Below are positions 5,183 through 62,335 of a stretch of DNA of 64,000 nt, in pieces (position 1 is the stretch's first letter; every line of letters begins with the position of its first letter). The translations under genes were made by a program, and so were the position numbers. Origin of the DNA: an archaeon 13_2_20CM_2_53_6 (GTDB lineage Archaea; Thermoproteota; Bathyarchaeia; 40CM-2-53-6); NCBI GenBank assembly GCA_001915065.1, contig MNDT01000061.1, forward strand, positions 2,954-66,953, read 5' to 3'. The notes beneath the pieces were generated by a model that saw nothing but the letters and a program-made list of their open reading frames with translations, did not search any database and was not told where the DNA came from.

Positions 5183-7501
5183 GTGAGAAGACGTTTGTTC
5201 TTGACGAGATTACTCGGTGCACCGCAATGGGCCATTGACAAGCTTTACAATTATCTTGGACTACGCGAAGGCCTCTCCACCGCTGCAAGGTGGACTCGTG
5301 TCGGTCTGGGAGCTTCAGCAGGATTCCTGATTCTCGCAGGCGTGCTGCTACTAGCAGTCGAACCATGGGTAGTCGAAGTTTTGGGCCTATCCGCAGGGTT
5401 GATCGGGTTTGGCCTCTTCAATCTGATCTCAGCGCATGGAAAGAAGCTCACCATGCTTCGCGCGAATCAGCTCTCTTTGCTTGGTCACTTTACCGCGATG
5501 ATTGCTCTATATGTTATCGTCTCAAGAGTTCTCATCGTCAGCTACACGACGGACACGGTTGTTGGAACCTATATGGGAGTGTTGAAGGTTCTCGAGGTGC
5601 AGAGTCCATACGGTGTTTCGATCAAGCCTTTGCTCGACGCGTTTGGCTTTTCACCCTCATTCTACACGCCCGGCGTTGACGGTTCCTTCGACTTCCACCT
5701 AGCCTATCCCTCGCTAAGCTTCCTGTCGGTCCTCCCATTCTATGTCTTGGGAATCCGAGATCTGCGCGATACCGTCTTCATCTTCTTCCTTCTCTCAGTC
5801 CTAATCGTCTTCGCATTGGCCCCGGCCAAGTTCAAGAACATGAGTCTCGCACCCTTCGGCCTATTTCCAGTCGTAATCGCTGGTGGCTGGACTGATAGTG
5901 TCTGGGCCTTCTTCCTCGTCCTTACAGCATTTCTCTGGTACCGTCACCCGAAGGCCAGCTGGGCCACTCTAGGCTTGGCGATCGCAACCAAACAGATTGC
6001 CATCGTCGTCGCCCCTTTCCTTCTTATTCGACTCTGGCACGAAACCCCCCAGTCAAGAACGCGTAGTCTTCTCACAAGTTTTGCCCTGATGACCGCAGCA
6101 TTCTTCCTGCCCAATCTTCCCTTCATGATCGCCTCTCCAAATGCTTGGTGGAACGCTGTCGTGGTTCCATACCTGCCGAGTTCTCCCTCTCAGGTTCCGG
6201 GCGGCGTAGGTCTCTCGGACATCCTGCTAGACCTGGGTGTTGCGCTACCTTCCTCCTTCTATCTGATCCTGGTACTCGGCGCCTCCAGCTTCCTCCTCTA
6301 CAGCTACGCTCGACACTATCAGGGCTTGAACAGCATGGTCTTCGTCTTCCCGATATTCATCTTCTTCCTCTACTACCGCTCTTTTCCCAATTACATGGCC
6401 TACTGGGGATTCCCTCTTGTCATCGAACTAACGCGCCTCGGAGGTCCGAATCTGCGAGCGCTATTCTCAATGAGGCTACCGAACATCGCCTGGCGGCCGC
6501 CAACCGAAACACTTCTAAGAATCACCAGGAGGAGACTTACTCCCTCACTGCTGGTACTGGTTGCACTCACTTTCGCTTTCGTCGGCGCGTCTGGTGCCTA
6601 CATATCTCAAGCCGCAACGCAGCAGGCATCGATCCAGATCAACGGCGTGATGGACCCGGACAATATCGGGGCCGCGACCATGATCAACGTCACTCTGAAG
6701 AACCTATTCTCCACACCGGTGTCCCCCACCTTCTTCGTGAAATGGTGGAACCCGCTGACATACTTCTGGACCACCAATTCGACCACACTCCTAGAATCGG
6801 GAGCGCAGAACTCGTACATCATAACTGCTCCCGACGCCTTGAGCGCCGTCCCAAGAGGAGCTCAGTTCCACGTAATGATCTATGACAAGCTGACCAACCA
6901 GCTATTGGGCGAATCCTCGTCCTACAAGGCAAGCATTCCAGCCCCTCCAGTTGCGAACCCGCGCCTGAAGTGGTGGGCACTAGACGCGAGCGTCGGGAAA
7001 AAAGTGCCCTTCAGCTGGAAACTCTCCCCCATCAACACTGACCTTACTACATCCCGAATCTCTCCCTTGGGCGTAGACGGGACAGGCGGATTACAGATGA
7101 TTCTGAATTATACGAATACCGGTATCGGGATCGAACAATTGGCACTCTCGCAGAGGGTCCTTTTCAACGCCACCAGCGTAAACATCAACTTCGAGCCTCA
7201 GGGCACGAAGAGCGTTGCGGCGAATGTCATGTTCGCCGCCAGCGTGACAGACGGAACTCACATCTTGTATTTCGTTTTCTCGAACCGGACGAACCGGGAG
7301 AGCATAACCACATACTCATCCAACACTACCGTCGTCGTTCCTACAGAGGCATCTGCCTGGAACACCGTGAGGATGGACCCAGTATCGATCTGGCAAAGCC
7401 AAGGATGGAACACGCCTCAGCAAGTCACGCTAGCTATTGTCCTCAAATCAGACGCCCCCGGAGTCTACTTCGCTAGTGTTCTCAGCGTCGACCCTGCTTA
7501 G
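5183..7501 (+). CDS. Large polytopic membrane protein with a C-terminal Ser/Thr/Asn-rich extracytoplasmic domain; possible GT-C-type glycosyltransferase
   Basis: More than 10 predicted TM helices across the first ~480 aa, then a ~280-aa soluble domain rich in N-x-S/T sequons. Sits in the glycosylation cluster. No diagnostic AglB WWDYG motif, so the function is uncertain. Confidence 0.35.
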   Translation: MRRRLFLTRLLGAPQWAIDKLYNYLGLREGLSTAARWTRVGLGASAGFLILAGVLLLAVEPWVVEVLGLSAGLIGFGLFNLISAHGKKLTMLRANQLSLLGHFTAMIALYVIVSRVLIVSYTTDTVVGTYMGVLKVLEVQSPYGVSIKPLLDAFGFSPSFYTPGVDGSFDFHLAYPSLSFLSVLPFYVLGIRDLRDTVFIFFLLSVLIVFALAPAKFKNMSLAPFGLFPVVIAGGWTDSVWAFFLVLTAFLWYRHPKASWATLGLAIATKQIAIVVAPFLLIRLWHETPQSRTRSLLTSFALMTAAFFLPNLPFMIASPNAWWNAVVVPYLPSSPSQVPGGVGLSDILLDLGVALPSSFYLILVLGASSFLLYSYARHYQGLNSMVFVFPIFIFFLYYRSFPNYMAYWGFPLVIELTRLGGPNLRALFSMRLPNIAWRPPTETLLRITRRRLTPSLLVLVALTFAFVGASGAYISQAATQQASIQINGVMDPDNIGAATMINVTLKNLFSTPVSPTFFVKWWNPLTYFWTTNSTTLLESGAQNSYIITAPDALSAVPRGAQFHVMIYDKLTNQLLGESSSYKASIPAPPVANPRLKWWALDASVGKKVPFSWKLSPINTDLTTSRISPLGVDGTGGLQMILNYTNTGIGIEQLALSQRVLFNATSVNINFEPQGTKSVAANVMFAASVTDGTHILYFVFSNRTNRESITTYSSNTTVVVPTEASAWNTVRMDPVSIWQSQGWNTPQQVTLAIVLKSDAPGVYFASVLSVDPA

Positions 7502-22283: not shown

Positions 22284-22695
22284 TTGTTGGGTAAATACAG
22301 CCATATCGCAATCGTTGATAACAATGTCACCGTCCCAGCAGAATTCTATTCCCTTCACGAAAAATTCGACGCCGACATCATTGAAGTCTATGTCGAACCC
22401 TCCTCACCGGTATTCAGGAGTGCGGTAGAAAGCGACGTTCTGGGTGAGACTTCGGGAAAGGGTCAGAGACTGTGCGACCATTTATCGGACTGACTTTTCC
22501 ATGCGCGTCGGGAGCATCCCAGAGGTAGAAACAGCAGGGACATGGTTCCTAATGCAGACGAAGAAAACAGCGGTCGCGGACTTGACAGTTATTCACAATC
22601 AGAACTTTAGCTTGCGGCATTCGATCAAATTCGAGCTCGAGACGGGAAGAGCAGAGCGAGCTACGCTACTCCTTCACAAAGACGATGCTTCATAG
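22284..22695 (+). pseudogene. Frameshifted paralog of the 20681-21301 gene
   Basis: YSHIAIVDNNVTVPAEFY in one frame and RVRDCATIYRTDFSMRVGSIP...SIKFELETGRAERA in a second frame align to consecutive parts of the 20681 protein. Confidence 0.5.
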
Positions 22696-22764
22696 CACTT
22701 TCAGAGTACCACGAATCGTACTGTTCTCCTCTCTCTATTACAAGCTTATGGATCTTGGTCGTGC

Positions 22765-22972
22765 CTAGGAGCTTGACGAAACCCTCGTCCAGCCCGTCCG
22801 CACCGTCACGCTCACCGCGTTTGGCAAGCGCCCGGCCGAGAACCTCCGGTTCGACCTCGCCCCAGGCGACGAGGGCCTTGACAGACCAGAGCATGCCAAG
22901 ATTCGACGGCGAATTCTCCAACAACCTAGCTTGGAAAGTCCGCTCCAGCCTCAACGACTCCATAGTCTTCCC
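22765..22972 (-). pseudogene. Truncated duplicate of ribosomal protein L30 (uL30) gene
   Basis: ~85-90% nucleotide identity to 26215-26420 (the rpl30 core). Encodes KTMESLRLERTFQARLLENSPSNLGML...GERDGADGLDEGFVKLLG but lacks the L30 N-terminus. Confidence 0.6.
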
Positions 22973-22979
22973 AAAAGTG

Positions 22980-23207
22980 ATGCGTGAACAAAACGCACTG
23001 AGCCGGCAGGACAAGGAAGAGTTCGACAGCATCCTCGCCAAAGCCGACAACCTCCTAAAAGGGCCAGATGATTGGACACCCACGAGAAAGGATTTCGTAG
23101 ACTCGAGTCCGAAAGAAAACAAAGTACACACGCTGGCGCTGACTGAAAGGGATGTACATCCCCACCGCCCATTCGCTATTTATGGAGGCAACCTCCTAGC
23201 AAACTGA
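22980..23207 (+). CDS. Small ORF carrying the conserved MREQNALSRQDKEEFDSILAKADNLLKG module (paralog of the 19014 C-terminus)
   Basis: Same module as 19420-19530, with synonymous-biased divergence. The portion of ORF 22755 upstream of it is antisense to the L30 fragment and probably non-coding. Confidence 0.3.
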   Translation: MREQNALSRQDKEEFDSILAKADNLLKGPDDWTPTRKDFVDSSPKENKVHTLALTERDVHPHRPFAIYGGNLLAN

Positions 23208-24605: not shown

Positions 24606-24923
24606 CTATTTCCTGGCCTTGATTTGTTCTTCTATTGCCTTGAGCCTGTTTTCTATCAGGGTTATCTTGTCGAGTATTTCTTTCAATATTCTTCCCAGCT
24701 CCTCTTCTCGTGGTCCGATGTACTGTCCAGGTCTCAGTGGTGACGGCATCGGCCCTATGGGTCTGGGTCGCAGAGGATCTGGGAGATTTGATGGCTCCAT
24801 AACGGGTCCGATTGGTCTAACGCGCGCTGAGTTTTCAGGGTTTTCATCTGCAAGACCTGCACTTTTTAGAGTTCGAATAGTAGAATTGAAGTCCTCTCGG
24901 ATAAGAGACGAAAGGAAATACAT
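24606..24923 (-). CDS. Hypothetical small protein with Pro-rich segment and C-terminal coiled coil
   Basis: The C-terminal EEELGRILKEILDKITLIENRLKAIEEQIKARK is a heptad-repeat helix. The ORF-track N-terminus (to 24980) is encoded by the leader repeat that is non-coding at the orc1 copy, so an internal Met is preferred (24923, or alternatively 24800). Confidence 0.3.
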   Translation of the reverse strand: MYFLSSLIREDFNSTIRTLKSAGLADENPENSARVRPIGPVMEPSNLPDPLRPRPIGPMPSPLRPGQYIGPREEELGRILKEILDKITLIENRLKAIEEQIKARK

Positions 24924-24944
24924 GTGCACGAGAAAACGCCTAGA

Positions 24945-25155
24945 AAAGCCCTGATCGGCAATCAGGGAGGGGGGTCCCACTGAGCAACTTATTCACGCTT
25001 GAAGGGCCCTCACCAACACGTACTGGAAAACGCTGATCAGCCCGTTCTACGCGTCAAATCGGAAATTTCGCCCAATTCTGTTTCAGATGGCCAGACGACC
25101 CATCCAGGATTTAGAAATAAAAAAATTCCCGCGACACAAGAGTGCTCTCTGGAGT
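24945..25155 (-). repeat. Inverted copy of the orc1 upstream promoter/leader element (34-bp perfect core at 25106-25139)
   Basis: The reverse complement of 24945-25155 aligns to 36113-36330 at roughly 80% identity, including the exact 34-mer ttgtgtcgcgggaatttttttatttctaaatcct. Confidence 0.7.
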
Positions 25156-25402
25156 ACGATCCTTTGCTAGGAAATCGCCTGGAACGAGCCCAGATCGCAA
25201 ATCCAAGCATCCGATTTGAAACCGCGACTTTTCCGCGCTGAGTCATGCGGATACCTCGCACCTACGAAAACCTCCGACCGGCCTATTCCGCGCCCAGAAT
25301 CGCCGGTCTCGCCCAGATCAGTTTCAACTGGTTCGACCTCTCTCCAGAAAATTTCCAGAGCGTTGATCGTCGCGACACATGAGTGGTCTTTGTGGTCTGT
25401 AG

Positions 25403-25933
25403 CTATTCTATCTGTATGGGCCGGCTCGGCTTCTTCTCGTCGCTCTTGATGAACCGGACCTCCAGCACACCGTTCTTGTACGTGGCCTTCGCGGTACGAG
25501 GATCGACCAGATGCCCGAGGTCGAGCTCTTTCAGATAACGCCGTTTCGCCGAGTCCACGCTTATCTTCAACGACCTGTCCGTAGACTCCAACCGTATCTC
25601 GTCCCGCTCCACGCCCGGCAGTTCAGTTACGACCACGATCTCGCGCCCCTCGTCCATAACATCCACCAACGGCTCGCGCTCCTCCTTGACCAAGGGCCCA
25701 CGCGCACTGGGCGCGACATTCCCGAACTCTCTAATGACCGGCTTCCCATCAGCACCGAGAGACATGGAGAAGCCGTAGACGAACGGCGAGACACCCTCCT
25801 GCGTCTTCGGCATCTCCACCGCTTTACGCATCATATCATCCATCAAACGATCCATCCGCTCCATCTCCTCGAACACGTCGAACCACCAGCCGGACCGGCT
25901 GTGGCGACGGCGAGACTCTCTCTTAGGAGCCAA
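25403..25933 (-). CDS. hsp20: Small heat-shock protein, Hsp20/alpha-crystallin family
   Basis: Alpha-crystallin domain (VDVMDEGREIVVVTELPGVERDEI...GVLEVRF). Confidence 0.8.
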   Translation of the reverse strand: MAPKRESRRRHSRSGWWFDVFEEMERMDRLMDDMMRKAVEMPKTQEGVSPFVYGFSMSLGADGKPVIREFGNVAPSARGPLVKEEREPLVDVMDEGREIVVVTELPGVERDEIRLESTDRSLKISVDSAKRRYLKELDLGHLVDPRTAKATYKNGVLEVRFIKSDEKKPSRPIQIE

Positions 25934-26006: not shown

Positions 26007-26495
26007 CTAGATCATGCGCTTGACTAGATGGTTGATATCCGCGCCCCGGTAGCCCAGCTCACCACCATCAGTCGCAGCCCTCCTCAGACTCCGCTTAAAC
26101 CCGCCCCGCGGAGGGTGGAGACGGAAACGCGGTTTCAGACCCGCCCGGTACAACGCCTGGACCCCGACCTCGCCAGCCACAACCGCCTTGGCCAGATCCT
26201 CGAAGCTCGTCTTGCCTAGAAGCTTGACAAAACCCTCGTCCAGCCCGTCCGCACCGTCACGCTCCCCACGCTTGACCAGCAGCCGGCCGAGAATCTCCGG
26301 ATCCACCTCGCCCCACGCAACGAGCGCTTTGGCCGACCTTAGCATACCAAGATTCGACGGCGTGTTCTCCAGCAGCCGGGCCTGGAAGGTCCGCTCCAGC
26401 CTCAACGACTCCATAGTCTTCCTTACATCCGGATTATCAGCGGCCGTCCCGCGCAACCGGACCGCAAACAGCAAACCCTTGCTCGACTCTTCCAA
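26007..26495 (-). CDS. rpl30p: 50S ribosomal protein L30 (uL30)
   Basis: VRLRGTAADNPDVRKTMESLRLERTF...SNLGMLRSAKALVAWGEV; position after rps5. Confidence 0.85.
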   Translation of the reverse strand: MEESSKGLLFAVRLRGTAADNPDVRKTMESLRLERTFQARLLENTPSNLGMLRSAKALVAWGEVDPEILGRLLVKRGERDGADGLDEGFVKLLGKTSFEDLAKAVVAGEVGVQALYRAGLKPRFRLHPPRGGFKRSLRRAATDGGELGYRGADINHLVKRMI

Positions 26496-35705: not shown

Positions 35706-36044
35706 ATGCTGACGGACGTTGCTGTTTTGCCGACGCAGGTGTCTGGTACGACGAGTTTTGGTTTGACGAAGCCGAGGATGTCTGAAGAGGAGATCTTCCG
35801 GATACTCACGACCACTGAGGTGAATATTCAGATTGTTCGGATTTGTGAGACTCCGCGGAGTGCGCGTGAGATTGCGCGGGGGTTGGGTGAGGTCTATCCT
35901 GGTCATAAGGAGAAGGGGTTTCCGCCGGACAAGCTGGGCGAGCATCTGGCGAATCTGGAACGGTTGGGGGCTGTCAAGTTTAACGGTGAGAAGTGGGCTG
36001 CGAGCGATGTGGGCGTGAAGATGGTCAAGAAATACTTCGGCTAG
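35706..36044 (+). CDS. Winged helix-turn-helix protein (putative regulator of the KaiC-like operon)
   Basis: IVRICETPRSAREIARGLG...LERLGAVKFNGEKW is a wHTH pattern. The start is 5 nt after the upstream stop; an internal Met at 35778 is an alternative. Confidence 0.4.
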   Translation: MLTDVAVLPTQVSGTTSFGLTKPRMSEEEIFRILTTTEVNIQIVRICETPRSAREIARGLGEVYPGHKEKGFPPDKLGEHLANLERLGAVKFNGEKWAASDVGVKMVKKYFG

Positions 36045-36082: not shown

Positions 36083-36210
36083 TATCGCGGGGATCTTTCC
36101 CAAAGAGCACGTTTGTGTCGCGGGAATTTTTTTATTTCTAAATCCTAGAGAGTGTCGTCTCGCCATCTGAAACAGAATTGCGCGAAATTCCCGGTTTGTC
36201 GCGCAGAACA
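36083..36210. promoter_or_regulatory. Candidate replication-origin / promoter region upstream of orc1: inverted cgggaattt motifs flanking an A/T-rich stretch
   Basis: tcgcggggatc (36086), tcgcgggaattt (36117) and the inverted gcgcgaaattcccgg (36181) bracket the A/T-rich 36127-36180. The sequence gggaatttttttatttctaaa also resembles an archaeal BRE/TATA element. Confidence 0.35.
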
Positions 36211-36330
36211 GGCTTATCGGCTGTTTTCAGTAGTTGCCGTGTGGCGGCCTCCAAGCGTGCGAAACCCGCCGCGTGGGACCCCACTCCCGGATCGCTGATC
36301 AGGGCTTATTCTGGGGCGATTTGCCGGATC
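36113..36330 (+). repeat. orc1 upstream promoter/leader element (copy 2; 34-bp perfect core at 36113-36146)
   Basis: See copy 1 at 24945-25155. Similarity extends ~185 bp downstream of the core (gtcgtct.gccatctgaaacagaattg.gcgaaatt... through ...gatcagggctt). Confidence 0.7.
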
Positions 36331-36467
36331 GGATATGCTATCTTTTCTACTCCGAAAAGTAGTATGGTCTCGGCTGTTTTTCTGCCCTGCTCCTCTCCCG
36401 GAGAGTTTACTTTCGCCCCTCTCTGCTCATCTTATACGTTCAACAGTACAGTTTAGGAGCTTACACG

Positions 36468-37706
36468 GTGGAAGTAATCAAAGTGCAGAAGAACAGCCTA
36501 GCCGCACCCGGCGAGATCGTCCGAGAAGCGCTCTCCAAACCAACCATATTCAAGAACGAAGAGCCGCTCAGCCTAGAGTGGCTGCCGCCCCGCCTCCCAC
36601 ACCGGGAGACCCAGCTACGCTTCCTAACAGAACTCTTCCGATCCGTCATAGACAAGCCCGGAACCACCAGCCCGAAGGTCCTGATAACCGGAGAGATCGG
36701 AACAGGAAAGACTGTTCTGACGCAACGGTTCGGGATGGACATTCAACGCACCGCCCGGACACTGAAGCAGAACCTCCAGTACATCCACGTCAACTGTCGC
36801 GAGTTCCGCGGCAGCCTCTTCATGATCCTCAAACAGGTACTGCAGAAGTTCACCCCGCAGTTTCCCCAGCGCGGATTCTCCAGCGAAGAACTCTTGCATA
36901 TACTGCTGGACCAGCTGGAGACGAAGAACCTCCACATTATTCTCACACTAGACGAGGCCGATGTCCTGATCGCCGCGGAAGGATCAACAAGCCTCTACAA
37001 CCTGACGCGTATTCAGGAGGAGCGGCCCGGTCGTCCCATACGACTGTCGCTGATAGTGGTACTGCGCGAGATAGAGAAGCTACAGGATCTCGATAGGAGT
37101 ACGCAGAGCACACTGCAGCGGAACCTGATACGGCTCGACCGGTACTCGGCCAGCCAGCTGGAATCGATCCTCAGAGAACGAGTAGAGCTGGCGTTCAAGG
37201 AAGGGACGATATCAGAACAGGTCGTGGATTTCGTGGCGGACATGGCGGCGCCGGCAGGCGATGCGAGATACGCGATCGAACTGGTCTGGCGCGCTGGAAA
37301 ATATGCTGATACTGAAGGGTCGCGGGAGGTCCGGGCGGAGCATGTCCGGGCCGCGGCCCAGAGCGTCTACCCGGTGATGAGGACAGACTACGCCCAGCAC
37401 CTGAACCTGCACGAAAAGCTGCTACTCCTGGGCCTTGCTAGGACCTTGGAGCGGACACAGGAGACGTACGCGTCGATGGGCGAGAGTGAGATAGCCTACA
37501 AGATGGCGTGCGAGGAGTACAAGGAACAGTTCAGAGCGCATACCCAGGTCTGGAAGTATGTCCAGAACCTCAGCGCCACGGGAATAGTCTCGACCCAGCC
37601 CTCGACCGCGGGGTTCAGAGGAAAGACGACGCTGCTGGGACTGCCCACAGCCCCGGCCTCGGCGATACGACGATGGCTAGAGTCGAGCCTAGTACGCAGG
37701 CCCTAA
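36468..37706 (+). CDS. orc1: Orc1/Cdc6 replication initiator (AAA+ plus C-terminal winged helix)
   Basis: Walker A GEIGTGKT, Walker B LTLDEADVL, sensor motifs, and a C-terminal wH. GTG start. Confidence 0.85.
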   Translation: MEVIKVQKNSLAAPGEIVREALSKPTIFKNEEPLSLEWLPPRLPHRETQLRFLTELFRSVIDKPGTTSPKVLITGEIGTGKTVLTQRFGMDIQRTARTLKQNLQYIHVNCREFRGSLFMILKQVLQKFTPQFPQRGFSSEELLHILLDQLETKNLHIILTLDEADVLIAAEGSTSLYNLTRIQEERPGRPIRLSLIVVLREIEKLQDLDRSTQSTLQRNLIRLDRYSASQLESILRERVELAFKEGTISEQVVDFVADMAAPAGDARYAIELVWRAGKYADTEGSREVRAEHVRAAAQSVYPVMRTDYAQHLNLHEKLLLLGLARTLERTQETYASMGESEIAYKMACEEYKEQFRAHTQVWKYVQNLSATGIVSTQPSTAGFRGKTTLLGLPTAPASAIRRWLESSLVRRP

Positions 37707-37713
37707 CAGGACC

Positions 37714-38019
37714 TTGCCCCAGAAAGCCTCGCTCGCAAATGTCCTCTCCAGCAGCGGCAGAATCAAGATACTGACCGTCCTCTCCAACGTGGGAGAGCTG
37801 CACCTTAGCGAGATTGCGAGGAAGACTGACCAGAGCTACAGCGCCACCGATCGACATTTACAAGAACTGTCGGAGGCCTCGATTGTCGAGGAGCACGATT
37901 ATGGACGGGTCCGAATGTTTAGGCTGAACTTGGAAAATCCGCGGGCGAAGATCCTGCGACAATTGATCCTCGAATGGGACAACAGTACGAATCCGAGAAT
38001 GATCGACGGACAGGTTTAA
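37714..38019 (+). CDS. ArsR-family wHTH transcriptional regulator
   Basis: RIKILTVLSNVGELHLSEIARKTDQSYSATDRHLQELSEASIV is a typical ArsR/SmtB HTH. Confidence 0.6.
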   Translation: MPQKASLANVLSSSGRIKILTVLSNVGELHLSEIARKTDQSYSATDRHLQELSEASIVEEHDYGRVRMFRLNLENPRAKILRQLILEWDNSTNPRMIDGQV

Positions 38020-38381: not shown

Positions 38382-38915
38382 CTAGATTACTTTGGCTGTG
38401 GCGACCGGCGTCAGAGTCATGGTCGGGTTGTTCATGATCTCGTTGTTGTTGAAAGACAAGTCCAGCTGGACTGTCATCGTTTCTCCACCATAGATGTGGA
38501 AGCCTCCGCCAGAGACTGGCACCTTGATTCCTGTCTGTGTGCCACTGGGAATTGTGTACGTGCTGTTGGTGCCGCTGATGGTGATTATCGCTTGGCTGGA
38601 GAAGAACCGGAGTTCGGTGTATCTGCCTGGTGGTAGCTGAGTTGTGCCGAGGAGTTTTGGTGTCGAGAAGGTTGTCATGAGGTTTACCGTGACATTCGTG
38701 GCCAGTGTCTGCCAGCCGCTGTTGTTGCCAGCGTTTGCGGCATGGATCTCGATGGTGGTCAGCGTGATGTAGATGGCTGTGATGTTGTTGCTGTAGGGTG
38801 TCGGGGGAGGGTCGGTTATGGACAGTGCGAGGTGTGATGGTGCATAGTAGAGGTAGGCGATGCTGCTGGAAGCGCCGAGAATGATTGTTAAAATCGCTAG
38901 TATCTTCCGGGCCAT
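38382..38915 (-). CDS. Exported/membrane-anchored protein, hypothetical (possibly DUF4382-like)
   Basis: N-terminal signal/anchor helix, then a Thr/Asn-rich beta-rich domain with N-x-T sequons. Confidence 0.4.
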   Translation of the reverse strand: MARKILAILTIILGASSSIAYLYYAPSHLALSITDPPPTPYSNNITAIYITLTTIEIHAANAGNNSGWQTLATNVTVNLMTTFSTPKLLGTTQLPPGRYTELRFFSSQAIITISGTNSTYTIPSGTQTGIKVPVSGGGFHIYGGETMTVQLDLSFNNNEIMNNPTMTLTPVATAKVI

Positions 38916-43205: not shown

Positions 43206-43664
43206 TCATCTCTCCACATAGTCGCCCAGAACAATTATCTGCAGCTCGCTGACTCTCTTCAGTTTGTCGTCATTGGTAACGAAGCCGGTTGCGCGGTTTG
43301 AGAGTGCGGTGCCAATCTGGATAGCGTCCGGCGGTTTGAGGCCATAGGCGGCTCTTAGGTCCGAAGCCCTCTCTGCACAATTATCATCTATCGGTTTCAA
43401 CGCGAGATTTGGGAAGGTCTTTAGAAGGAATCTGTAGTCTTCGGCCGCTTGCATGTTTCCGATCTGCTTTGGCCTGACGAGCACTTCCATCAACGTGAGG
43501 GTGGAAGTGAGGGCCTTGAGGCTGCCGTTCTCAACCTCCTCGAGTAGCCGGAGTGTCAGTTTGGAATACTCCGGATCCTTCTCGAGATGGTAGATGAAGG
43601 GTGAAGTGTCGATTCCGACCAGCTTGTGCCTGGCTAGGCTTTTGAGGAGGCCTCTCTCGCCCAT
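43206..43664 (-). CDS. vapC: PIN-domain ribonuclease toxin VapC
   Basis: VGIDTSPFIY and the conserved acidic residues (D..E..D..D). Confidence 0.75.
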   Translation of the reverse strand: MGERGLLKSLARHKLVGIDTSPFIYHLEKDPEYSKLTLRLLEEVENGSLKALTSTLTLMEVLVRPKQIGNMQAAEDYRFLLKTFPNLALKPIDDNCAERASDLRAAYGLKPPDAIQIGTALSNRATGFVTNDDKLKRVSELQIIVLGDYVER

Positions 43665-43891
43665 GATTCTCGCTCCTTCCTCACGTACTCATCTGGCTTG
43701 ACGCCCTTCCAGACATCCTTGTGCAACCCTAGCATGTGCCTAGCATAACTGCGCGGCCGGGGCTTGATCATAACCTTCCCCTTCTCAACCTCGACAACCA
43801 GTTCGTCCCCAGCGCCGACTCCTAACGCTTCCCGGGCCTCTCGCGGGACCACGACCTGGTGTTTCCGGCTCACCCTTACGATGGAGCCCAT
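43634..43891 (-). CDS. vapB: AbrB/SpoVT-family antitoxin VapB
   Basis: VSRKHQVVVPREAREALGVGAGDELVVE; sits upstream of vapC and overlaps it. Confidence 0.65.
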   Translation of the reverse strand: MGSIVRVSRKHQVVVPREAREALGVGAGDELVVEVEKGKVMIKPRPRSYARHMLGLHKDVWKGVKPDEYVRKERESWAREASSKA

Positions 43892-44426: not shown

Positions 44427-44900
44427 GTGCCGTGGGTCCCGGTCGAGGAGTTCCCCGTGCAAGTCCGACTAATGATCACTGCGAGGTACGTGGTTCTCCT
44501 AGCCTATGTTGCCTTTTGGAACGTGCTTGTCGGACTATTTCTATTGCTCGTGCTAGGCGCTCTCGGGACATTCGGACTCGTAGCCGGAGTAGTAGCACTC
44601 ATGGGTTACTCAGGATTCCCGCTATGGATAGCAATCGCGCGAACGAGAAGGAAGACCCACGGCTGGCTCAGGATTCAGGGCAGATCGGTTGTCGTGCGAA
44701 GTCTAGATTGGATACCCGTCTTTCCGAAATTGATTGAATGGAAAAGCCCTCAGGTCATTGTTCTTAGAGGCCGGGGGATAAGCTATGAACTGTCCTTTCT
44801 GACCAGTGAGAGTCTAACCCGAGCGGTAGCGAGGATAAGAACCGCCTATCCCGGGGTCCAAGAAATTCTCGCTGAGACGTACATGCAAGATTCACGATGA
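44427..44900 (+). CDS. Membrane protein, hypothetical; its 3' end is duplicated 8.3 kb downstream
   Basis: Two TM helices. The C-terminal 45 codons plus ~15 bp of 3' flank recur at 53081-53253. Confidence 0.35.
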   Translation: MPWVPVEEFPVQVRLMITARYVVLLAYVAFWNVLVGLFLLLVLGALGTFGLVAGVVALMGYSGFPLWIAIARTRRKTHGWLRIQGRSVVVRSLDWIPVFPKLIEWKSPQVIVLRGRGISYELSFLTSESLTRAVARIRTAYPGVQEILAETYMQDSR

Positions 44901-44915: not shown

Positions 44916-45302
44916 TTGAGGAACGTCTCTTCATAGACGCGTCCATGCCTCGTACAAAGAGCAGTTCTGCGTCACGAGGATCAACGTTTTTGAGATTTTT
45001 GGAGAGGGGTCCAGCTGGTTGAACAAGATCTGGGCGAGTCTCGTGATTCCGGGCGTGTTATGGGCTGGTCAGGCGCTTTGGATATCGTGGAGGTCAGCGT
45101 GCAGGTCAGCGTGAAAACTGCGCGAGGTCAAATCGTCTTCCCCGATCGTCAATCCGGGCTTGTTCTGCGCTTGTCGGGCTTGAAACGGAACAGTTTCCAA
45201 GTTTCGAATCTTCTGCGTGATGCTTGGCCTGCGTGACCTATAATCGGAAAATAGGACTCGACTGGGTCTGTCACGAGTGGGAGGGCCAAGATCAAAGGTT
45301 GG

Positions 45303-46199
45303 CTAGCAGGGTGCATGGAGATAACTCCGGACGAGACAGGCCGTAAACTTGTAACCTGCGATGTTGAGTCCGAAGGAGCCGGTGACTTGGCTTGCGGCTA
45401 GGAAGGCGATGAAGAATGCGACAACGAGATAGTCTTTGCGGGTCATTCTAATCACCCTTAGGGAAGTTCTCTTGCCGGGGTTGTAGCCGAATCCTCTTGA
45501 TGATATTGCTGCTGCGAGAAACTCAGCCCTTGTAAATGATCTTACTATAGTTGGAATAATGGCTGGGATGTAGAGCCTCAGAGCCTTCACGGGATTCCTG
45601 GTCTTAATCCTCCAGCCCCGGGCCTTCTGCGCTTCGAATATTGTAGTTGCCTGCCTAGCGGTGACCGGTAGGAATCCGAAGGCCACGCTTATGGCCGTGG
45701 TTATCTCTACAGGAACACGGAACTTGCTCCAGGCCAGAGCAACCTCCGTCGGCGAGGTGAAGGTGAGGAGAAGCCTGCCTGCGGTGGCGATTATTATGAG
45801 CCTCTCCATGGCTCCGACCGCGTAGACGAGGTTCTCGATGGTCAGCTTTCCGTAAGGGCCGAAGCTACCGATCTTGGGAATGATGTAGCCGATGATGAGG
45901 GGCTGGATAGTGGAGGAGACGCCGAGCCCAGTGGGTCCGTAGAAGAAGATGTTGAACAGAATGAGGAAGACTAGGGCGGGGGTTAGAAACACAAGTGGTT
46001 TCAGGATTGCCTTGAGGCTCTGCTTCGCGAGAAGCCCCACAGAAATTATCGCGAAAAATAGTGCCGTCAGCCATATAGGATCAGTCCATGCGACCGCGGG
46101 AAGTGTGAATGCAAAGAACCAGAGAAACTTGACTCTGGGGTCCAGACGATGGATCGGACTGTCTTCTTCCTTGTAGCTGAAGAGGTTCAGAACGCTCAT
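45303..46199 (-). CDS. ecfT: ECF transporter transmembrane (T) component, EcfT/CbiQ family
   Basis: CbiQ-like topology and the conserved coupling helix with an ARG motif (EAQKARGWR). Confidence 0.75.
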   Translation of the reverse strand: MSVLNLFSYKEEDSPIHRLDPRVKFLWFFAFTLPAVAWTDPIWLTALFFAIISVGLLAKQSLKAILKPLVFLTPALVFLILFNIFFYGPTGLGVSSTIQPLIIGYIIPKIGSFGPYGKLTIENLVYAVGAMERLIIIATAGRLLLTFTSPTEVALAWSKFRVPVEITTAISVAFGFLPVTARQATTIFEAQKARGWRIKTRNPVKALRLYIPAIIPTIVRSFTRAEFLAAAISSRGFGYNPGKRTSLRVIRMTRKDYLVVAFFIAFLAASQVTGSFGLNIAGYKFTACLVRSYLHAPC

Positions 46200-62039: not shown

Positions 62040-62075
62040 GGGATTTTTTTTCTACGTGTTGACGGCCAGTTTTTA
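62040..62075 (+). promoter_or_regulatory. Putative promoter (partial copy of the cgggaWttttttt..cta core, followed by the TATA-like tttttattc)
   Basis: cgggattttttttcta resembles the 34-bp core at 36113. Lies 20-50 nt upstream of the 62093 ATG. Confidence 0.3.
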
Positions 62076-62092
62076 TTCTCACCAACATAATC

Positions 62093-62335
62093 ATGGCGAG
62101 TCCGGGAAGCTTGAGAATGTCCCATCGCAAGCGGAAGGTAGAGACTGTCAATTCGACGGGTCGGACACTTCGAACGTTGAGTGGTGAAGCCCGCGTCAAA
62201 CTCGCCGCCGAGATGAGCTCGGCCGTATCAGCCATCATGCTTGACTCGATTCTGGACCGCAACCCTGGAATATCAAAAACGAGACTCGTGAAGCTGGCTC
62301 ACAAGAGACTCGAGCCGGGACGTAGGATCCGCTGA
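62093..62335 (+). CDS. Hypothetical small basic protein (possible antitoxin/regulator of the downstream NTase-like gene)
   Basis: 80-aa ORF. Its TGA overlaps the CTG that opens the next conserved frame. Confidence 0.25.
   Translation: MASPGSLRMSHRKRKVETVNSTGRTLRTLSGEARVKLAAEMSSAVSAIMLDSILDRNPGISKTRLVKLAHKRLEPGRRIR

Follow-up and report, generated by a model that had tools for sequence, protein, structure and literature searches.

A family of ~235-bp intergenic units in soil Bathyarchaeia, with one copy upstream of orc1, as candidate small non-coding RNA genes

We analyzed a 64,000-nucleotide stretch of DNA (hereafter the window) from the Bathyarchaeia archaeon 13_2_20CM_2_53_6 (GenBank assembly GCA_001915065.1, contig MNDT01000061.1, positions 2,954 to 66,953 of the forward strand), which carries an intergenic repeat with one copy upstream of the initiator gene orc1. 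The repeat is tentatively, with somewhat less than even confidence, interpreted as a lineage-specific family of autonomous ~235-bp intergenic transcription units, i.e. candidate genes of small non-coding RNAs (ncRNAs). This assignment is based on the fixed ends of the unit, its orientation independent of the neighboring genes, a promoter-like start, a strand-specific hairpin at the end, conservation at the level of coding sequences, and paralogs that evolve in concert. A duplicated small ncRNA gene was one of three readings offered in an earlier note on this DNA (the original prediction) and is the best fit among them, albeit still as a candidate. Each unit would comprise an upstream box, a core resembling the archaeal B recognition element and TATA box (BRE/TATA), a body, and a 3' stem-loop with a pyrimidine/U-rich tail behind it. 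The genome has several paralogs, at least two of them elsewhere and four in the window, the latter in an alpha and a beta form:

36097-36329 (+): copy A, alpha form (nhmmer E-value 4e-61; covariance model, 200.7 bits; alignments)
36113-36146 (+): perfect 34-mer of copy A, containing the BRE/TATA-like core
24921-25156 (-): copy B, alpha form, upstream of a small proline-rich coiled-coil open reading frame (ORF) (nhmmer E-value 1.5e-65; covariance model, 179.8 bits)
25397-25157 (-): copy B2, beta form, directly upstream of B in tandem (covariance model, nhmmer, BLAST)
44949-45185 (+): copy C3, beta form, between convergent genes (BLAST, 74.6% identity over 118 nt to B2)

Copies A and B are ~80% identical and inverted with respect to each other, 36097-36329 (+) versus 25156-24921 (-) according to nhmmer. 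A repeat search of the window reported them as two pairs of inverted arms, 24946-25130/36123-36307 (185 nt, 72% ungapped) and 25103-25152/36100-36149 (50 nt, 92%), and in the MAFFT alignment the mean column identity is 80%, with similarity running unbroken from ~36100 to 36315. The 31-mer core has two exact occurrences in the window, and so does the 19-mer GCCATCTGAAACAGAATTG, while shuffles predict 0.00 and 0.01, respectively. The ~220-bp inverted duplicate with a perfect 34-bp core described in the original prediction is therefore real by all three methods, and the pairwise alignment extends well past the 34-mer. The similarity is, however, not restricted to the downstream side, as had been stated, since it also covers ~13-25 nt upstream of the 34-mer (CCAAAGAGCAC...), and the two copies are only part of at least four in the window, B2 and C3 having been overlooked. 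The presumed partial third copy of the core at 62040 is not a family member according to nhmmer, but a T-rich promoter-like stretch that precedes the ATG at 62093 by ~45 nt. Copy A starts 53 nt past the stop codon of the upstream gene and ends ~140 nt before orc1.

Alpha loci were collected by a gapped-pattern scan of metagenome contigs, which returned 16 loci, and beta members with a covariance model and a profile hidden Markov model. B2 scores 20.8-21.4 bits with the covariance model (E-value about 1e-5 to 9e-5) and reaches an nhmmer E-value of 7.6e-57 with the combined alpha+beta profile, the training set of which includes B2 itself; independent BLAST matches link it to C3 and to L030 (L numbers designate related contigs and loci). 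It starts 5 nt past the hsp20 stop codon, lacks the long T-run, and bears ACCAGTTGAAAC together with two TCTGGGCG boxes. C3 is flanked by genes at 44427-44900 (+) and 45303-46199 (-, CbiQ family according to Pfam). In alignments the unit has a length of ~235 bp, identical boundaries and locus-specific flanks, both of its ends being shared by at least seven unrelated loci. The alpha unit was found between a KaiC-KaiC-153aa gene series and orc1, between hsp20 and the small proline-rich coiled-coil ORF, between a divergent DUF4382 gene and an ATP-dependent DNA ligase gene, and after a glyoxalase-family gene, in front of the 3' end of a convergent purH (L014/L017). Another member, in L039, is flanked by the 5' end of an integrase gene on one side and by the 3' end of a different gene on the other. 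The next downstream gene is convergent at C3, at the purH locus and in L039, and since these three loci have no co-directional downstream gene, the unit is not merely a shared 5' leader.

Upstream of orc1, a full-length diverged member was identified in L030 (Orc1 87% identical to that of the window) and in L032 (75%), and two tandem partial copies in L035, while in L031, L033 and L034 only GGGCTT boxes and a conserved ~75-bp proximal promoter remain. The distant complete genome L037 was uninformative, with a TnpB gene directly upstream of its orc1. No member was found upstream of ligase orthologs with 83% and 76% identity, which suggests that the ligase copy is recent. In a species collection the 19-mer GCCATCTGAAACAGAATTG matched a single archaeal genome, the soil Bathyarchaeota metagenome-assembled genome (MAG) BA_12, and judging from sequence matches the unit is confined to a group of soil Bathyarchaeia. 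We found no description of it in Rfam or in the searchable literature; it would represent a lineage-specific candidate family of small RNAs (sRNAs) or cis-elements. As a side observation, two independent metagenome contigs (L002 1-480 and L006 1-480) both end 479 bp upstream of orc1, just before copy A, which would be expected of a repeat that disrupts short-read assembly.

The anatomy of the unit is exemplified by copy A:

36100-36122 (+): upstream conserved box, CCAAAGAGCACGTTTGTGTCGCG, common to alpha and beta members
36122-36142 (+): BRE/TATA-like T-rich core, GGGAATTTTTTTATTTCTAAA, invariant in 19/19 alpha sequences
36162-36180 (+): invariant 19-mer GCCATCTGAAACAGAATTG, near the 5' end of the predicted transcript (alignment, repeat counts)
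36287-36314 (+): 3' hairpin, CCCGGATC-GCT-GATCAGGG with one G.A mismatch, followed by CTTATTCTG

In the alignments the unit starts with the conserved box CAAAGAGCAC..TG.GTCGCG, beyond which the flanks are locus-specific. The alpha core consists of GGGAA and T7ATTTCTAAA and is similar to CGGGATTTTTTTTCTA, which precedes the ORF at 62093; elsewhere in the window, TATA-like boxes are positioned at -27 to -45 from start codons. The core is, as proposed originally, a good look-alike of an archaeal BRE/TATA promoter, invariant among the alpha sequences, and we infer that it fires as a promoter. It is followed by GGAGAG and a body of ~160 nt with the conserved blocks …TGAAAC…, TCTGGGCGAG, GGGCTG, GTTTTC and CAAGCGTG; the 19-mer GCCATCTGAAACAGAATTG includes CCANNNGAAAC, similar to the core of the origin recognition box (ORB), and then a G(G/C)GCG box. 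The stem-loop of the family, CCCGGATC/GATCNGGG, is followed by CTT(A/G)TTCTGGGCGATTT, and in copy B the hairpin (24967-24949) with the adjacent CTTTTCT was flagged as terminator-like. The ~160-170 nt body, with its conserved blocks and GGGC(U/G) motifs, is predicted to be transcribed, giving an RNA of ~165 nt.

Analysis of coding potential revealed no frame open in both A and B, and the 49 substitutions between them are spread evenly over the three codon positions (17/16/16); with neither a shared open frame nor codon periodicity, a protein-coding function can be dismissed, and the earlier description of the conserved downstream stretch as non-coding holds for both copies. The original prediction had this stretch running into the N-terminus of the small ORF called at 24980, but that N-terminal third is not conserved in L029 and L016, and by comparison of the translations the protein probably starts at the ATG at 24803 rather than at the GTG at 24980.

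A structural feature of the unit that does hold is the terminal hairpin. Over its eight pairs, 89.8% of the cells in an alignment of 11 sequences are paired, as compared to 23-60% for slid controls, and three pairs are changed on both sides (including A-U to U-A and G-C to U-A). All changes in the 5' arm are C to U, which maintain a G.U wobble only on the forward strand, as the reverse strand would acquire A.C. Between the window and L019 the unit is 89-94% identical, like the flanking coding sequence, versus 51-68% for the intergenic sequence just upstream. At 43 sites that distinguish A from B, the copy at the B locus of L016 is A-type throughout, while in that of L029 only the 5' third is A-type, the rest being B-type, which reveals gene conversion between the inverted copies in natural populations. 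Inversion of the intervening segment, also suggested earlier, found no support, as none of the ~20 related contigs contains an isomer; in every contig covering either locus the flanks are as in the window, and the order of ribosomal operon, KaiC and orc1 is unchanged in relatives without the alpha pair. We speculate that the ncRNA would be a trans-acting or protein-binding regulatory RNA, which would work via its sequence motifs, either by base-pairing or by protein binding. One copy occupies a conserved position just upstream of orc1, and gene conversion keeps the paralogs alike. No site complementary to the invariant 19-mer that could be targeted in trans was found in the window, and among duplex energies calculated against 69 translation-start regions, those of the neighboring genes were unremarkable.

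The unit could alternatively be a distal promoter with a long 5' leader or attenuator, the orphan copies being decayed remnants, but we consider this quite unlikely. At orc1, at the DNA ligase gene and at the small ORF it does face a gene starting 115-160 nt further on, two of the three being replication genes, and at orc1 and ligase the sequence following the hairpin would terminate only weakly, so that read-through would be plausible there. Opposed to this are the three loci with convergent downstream genes, the absence of the ligase copy in species with 83% and 76% identical ligases, the lack of a conserved leader structure, and the presence of a separate conserved promoter of orc1:

36468-37706 (+): orc1/cdc6, 412 aa (Pfam Cdc6_lid, Cdc6_C, AAA_22)
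36405-36479 (+): proximal orc1 promoter region (…CTCTGCTCATCTTATACGTTCAACAGTA…), 89% identical to L030 and 80-83% to L031 and L032
L030 8615-8690, L031 9891-9996, L032 9868-10002: the same block in relatives

This ~75-bp block, GGATTACTTTTATCC…CTCTGCTCATCTTATACGTTCAACAGTA…GAGAGCTT, is 80-89% conserved across species, including those without the alpha unit; judging from its sequence, it probably serves as the proximal promoter of orc1, and the small inverted repeats within it could represent operators. Neither consistent co-orientation with the downstream gene nor a covarying structure, as expected of riboswitches and leaders, was observed, the terminal hairpin being the only such feature that holds. 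The convergent loci, the proximal orc1 promoter and the absence of a fold weaken the original suggestion of a shared promoter with a structured leader that co-regulates orc1 and the coiled-coil gene.

That the unit is a selfish or neutral repeat, either similar to miniature inverted-repeat transposable elements (MITEs) or a functionless leftover of segmental duplications, appears very unlikely to us. Its positions do vary between related genomes, there are tandem copies (B2-B and the two copies in L035), and another local duplication, a truncated L30 gene, is found nearby. Nonetheless, a comparison with MITEs and insertion sequences showed that the ends of the unit, CCAAAGAGCAC… and …GGCGATTT, are not complementary, i.e. 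there are no terminal inverted repeats, and seven loci exhibit no duplicated target site; no transposase is associated with it. Searches of viral-contig, phage and plasmid collections yielded no matches, and a mobile or viral origin was rejected on these grounds. Moreover, only ~4 alpha loci were recovered from 16 metagenome contigs, the position at orc1 is kept across species, and the unit is conserved like coding sequence while its flanks decay.

Several results weigh against the interpretation of the unit as an ncRNA gene. Rfam 15 gave no match at the gathering score in the whole window, and at E-values up to 10 only chance-level matches for A, B/B2, C3 and L039 (sR35 with 11.6 bits and psbT-asRNA with 19.9 bits), so the earlier idea of an Rfam scan did not lead to any known RNA family. 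The folding energies of most members are no better than those of dinucleotide shuffles on both strands, and the structure conservation index (alifold, with column shuffles of both strands as the control) amounts to 0.60 in alpha (z -1.3) and 0.14 in alpha+beta (z -1.5); with the z-scores of minimum free energy and structure conservation mostly non-significant, a globally structured RNA is unsupported. An apparent compensatory stem (alignment columns 96-101/120-125, UGGCGG/CCGCCG versus GAGAGCC/GGUGCUC in orc1-type versus other alpha copies) is broken in L025-type copies. The covariation score of the terminal hairpin was matched by 22 of 500 shuffles, hence this covariation is suggestive but not decisive. 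The beta copies have only a short T-rich box and are devoid of a convincing TATA box, and a run of at least four T after the hairpin occurs only in copy B, L030 and L032, so termination may be leaky. Finally, a DNA-binding role would account just as well for the GGGC boxes and for the grouping of members near orc1. Two further structural analyses yielded little: a helix scan reported 13 short forward-strand helices, mostly pairing of T-runs with G-runs, and thus no clean test, and a long-range CGAUU/AAUCG pairing was dropped, being kept only at 78%. The absence of a conserved fold together with the repeated GGGC motifs would nevertheless fit an RNA that acts through its motifs; repeated short motifs with little global fold are typical of the Csr/Rsm sponge RNAs.

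The lack of a conserved RNA fold in the body would equally agree with a function of the unit as double-stranded DNA, a possibility that we regard as the leading alternative, albeit a somewhat doubtful one. According to it, the unit would be a binding module for Orc1/Cdc6 or for a regulator, such as the winged-helix protein encoded after orc1; the array of GGGC(T/G) boxes with a lineage-specific ORB-core-like box would mark or control an origin beside orc1, and the extra copies would serve as titration or regulatory sites, by analogy to ORB clusters outside oriC or to the bacterial datA/DARS. Every relative examined has a family member or its GGGCTT boxes upstream of orc1, four members are found within 20 kb around orc1 in the window (nhmmer), and in most relatives orc1 resides among replication genes (Hel308, MCM, GINS, RFC). 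Upstream of orc1 in eight genomes, 19 copies of GGGCTT were counted versus 1.0 expected, with a strong strand bias (only two copies of its reverse complement), and the GGGC boxes exhibit recurring spacings of 11, 18-20 and 30 bp. Helical phasing of these boxes is weak evidence, however, as the spacings (19 + 11 = 30) reflect largely homologous positions and 19 bp does not correspond to whole helical turns. Members at unrelated loci, such as the 3' ends of purH and the CbiQ gene and the integrase gene, also argue against a DNA module, and the wobble-only changes in the hairpin point to RNA or a single-stranded form of one strand.

The original prediction included duplicated ORB-like origin sequence among its readings, and the unit was compared with known ORBs. 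The archaeal ORB consensus is CTTCCAGTGGAAACGAAAGGGGT (PMC4153887), the common ORB motif is TCCA[CG]T[TG]GAAA[TC][GA]AAGGGGT (PMC4164010), and in the Pyrococcus ORBs TTCC and GAA are invariant, with extra clusters away from the origin (PMC1904270). The alpha units contain GCCATCTGAAAC-AGAATT-G(G/C)GCG, in which GCCATCTGAAAC agrees with 9/12 positions of the common ORB core (PMC4164010), and B2, in favor of a DNA module, contains ACCAGTTGAAAC-TGATCT-GGGCG with 11/12 positions of that core, without TTCC. The full ORB motif with up to 3 mismatches has no match in the window, the core with up to 1 mismatch has five (2.2 expected), and an exact core match was found in none of 37 loci. The GGGGT G-string 3-4 nt after the dyad is absent, the units having GGGCG 6 nt after the dyad instead; an inverted ORB pair around an AT-rich unwinding region is likewise absent, as there is one box per unit, always on the orc1 strand, and the only AT-rich stretch spans ~20 bp. 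The members upstream of orc1 in L030 and L032 have lost the ORB-like box. Without TTCC, GGGGT and an inverted pair, the unit does not qualify as a canonical ORB, and none was found in the window or in the related loci; the unit may have a looser DNA-binding role.

The local gene order is small ORF (-), B (-), B2 (-), hsp20 (-) and a ribosomal protein operon from L30 to L22 (-), which is followed by two KaiC genes, a 112-aa gene (+), copy A (+), orc1 (+) and the winged-helix gene (+). The genes next to the tandem pair are:

25403-25933 (-): hsp20, directly upstream of B2 (Pfam HSP20)
24606-24803 (-): small proline-rich coiled-coil protein, downstream of B (translations of the window, L029 and L016)

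The gene preceding copy A (35706-36044) encodes 112 aa in the window and 153 aa in related contigs; a 123-bp indel at ~35729 accounts for the difference, the product having 153 aa in the near-identical L001 and L003-L005 as well as in L019 and L021. The Orc1 protein is identical on six soil metagenome contigs. A small gene of an ArsR/HVO_A0114-like winged-helix protein directly follows orc1 in most relatives (37714-38019 (+) in the window), which makes its product a candidate for binding to the upstream boxes. Its positions in relatives are:

L031 11227-11541, L033 11230-11550, L035 11188-11526: winged-helix gene after orc1

The orc1 and ligase loci, the two places where the alpha unit faces a replication gene, both have DUF4382 paralogs in the vicinity (window 38382-38915 (-), L025 2903-3436 (-), L038 4833-5423 (-)). 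The region upstream of the L038 ligase (83% identical) contains different repeats (5650-5800 and 5540-5870), namely four GGTACCG boxes and a ~60-bp direct repeat (…cgtgagca.gtttt..gat.ctacgcca.t..gacgc…). Between orc1 and C3 there is a toxin-antitoxin pair of PIN-domain and MazE-like proteins (43206-43891 (-)). The truncated L30 duplicate (22661-23131 (-)) is located 3.4 kb from the real gene (26007-26495 (-)); the repeat 22758-22971/26209-26422 has 86% DNA identity over 214 nt and covers only the middle of the protein, with unrelated termini. Between the two L30 copies lie hsp20, B2, B, the small ORF and a methyltransferase gene, which points to a segment that was locally inserted or duplicated where the ribosomal protein operon ends.

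Three observations concern the related contigs. Near a gene of a XerC/D-like integrase we found an inverted repeat conserved in two species, CCAATTTTTTGGAGA…TCTCCAA(A/T)TTTTTGGA (L039 2255-2305 and L038 2835-2880), which could be a recombination (dif-like) site. The MCM gene of L032 (16653-21227) has two intein insertions (Intein_splicing, LAGLIDADG_3) and a product of at least 1584 aa. The MAG GCA_030157145.1, from which L030, L031, L033 and L039 originate, contains three orthologs of orc1, the products of which are 87%, 79% and 78% identical to the Orc1 of the window; L030 and L033 share the gene order deoxyhypusine synthase, inositol-1-phosphate synthase, helicase, MCM and GINS after orc1, L031 having the first two, and several related species are probably mixed in this bin.

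Bathyarchaeia are abundant and mostly uncultured, and to our knowledge nothing is known about their replication origins and regulatory RNAs. In the orc1 neighborhoods of this clade that were examined, no canonical ORB was found, and a member of the family or its GGGCTT boxes is present instead; the unit is the first concrete sequence that can be put forward in connection with orc1 for a clade without canonical ORBs near this gene. It may be that the unit is an origin-linked regulatory element peculiar to the clade, but we consider this unlikely even when its two conceivable forms are taken together: an sRNA made beside orc1 which, with its paralogs, would bind or titrate the initiator or a partner protein via GGGC(U/G), or a DNA module that would replace canonical ORBs in recognition by Orc1. 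Such an element would couple the initiation of replication to other loci, such as DNA ligase. If the unit encodes an RNA, it would constitute a new family of archaeal sRNAs, present in multiple copies, one of them fixed next to the initiator gene. If it acts as DNA, it would indicate a non-canonical sequence for the origin or for recognition by the initiator. In both cases there is now a concrete sequence open to synthesis and testing. The unit also represents a clean natural case of gene conversion between dispersed non-coding paralogs in an archaeal population.

Among known systems, bacterial promoter-bearing repeats such as the Correia/CREE and REP/ERIC elements resemble the unit as repeated intergenic sequences of 100-250 bp that can place a promoter or a hairpin beside genes; unlike them, it lacks terminal inverted repeats and target-site duplications, has a low copy number and occupies one stable locus. 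With archaeal ORBs and mini-ORBs it shares the position directly upstream of orc1 and a CCA-N3-GAAAC sequence followed by a G-rich box. It differs from them in the absence of TTCC, in its G-string (GGGC at a distance of 6 nt versus GGGGT at 3-4 nt), and in its single box without an inverted partner, which is not conserved upstream of orc1 in related species. Comparison with regulatory RNAs sets it apart from Csr/Rsm and Qrr in that its motif is different and one copy is fixed upstream of orc1; we know of no CsrA/RsmA-type partner in archaea. The repeated GGGC motifs and the little global fold of the body, as well as the multiple paralogs with their conserved promoter-like start, may be likened to the Csr/Rsm sponge RNAs, purely as an analogy. 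As in intergenic sRNA families, the promoter-like core and upstream box are the best conserved parts of the unit, a conserved 5' block comes next, and a 3' stem-loop forms the end; like Qrr1-5, RsmX/Y/Z, CsrB/C and the archaeal intergenic sRNA genes with their own BRE/TATA promoter, it would be a short autonomous unit, and it is present as several paralogs per genome.

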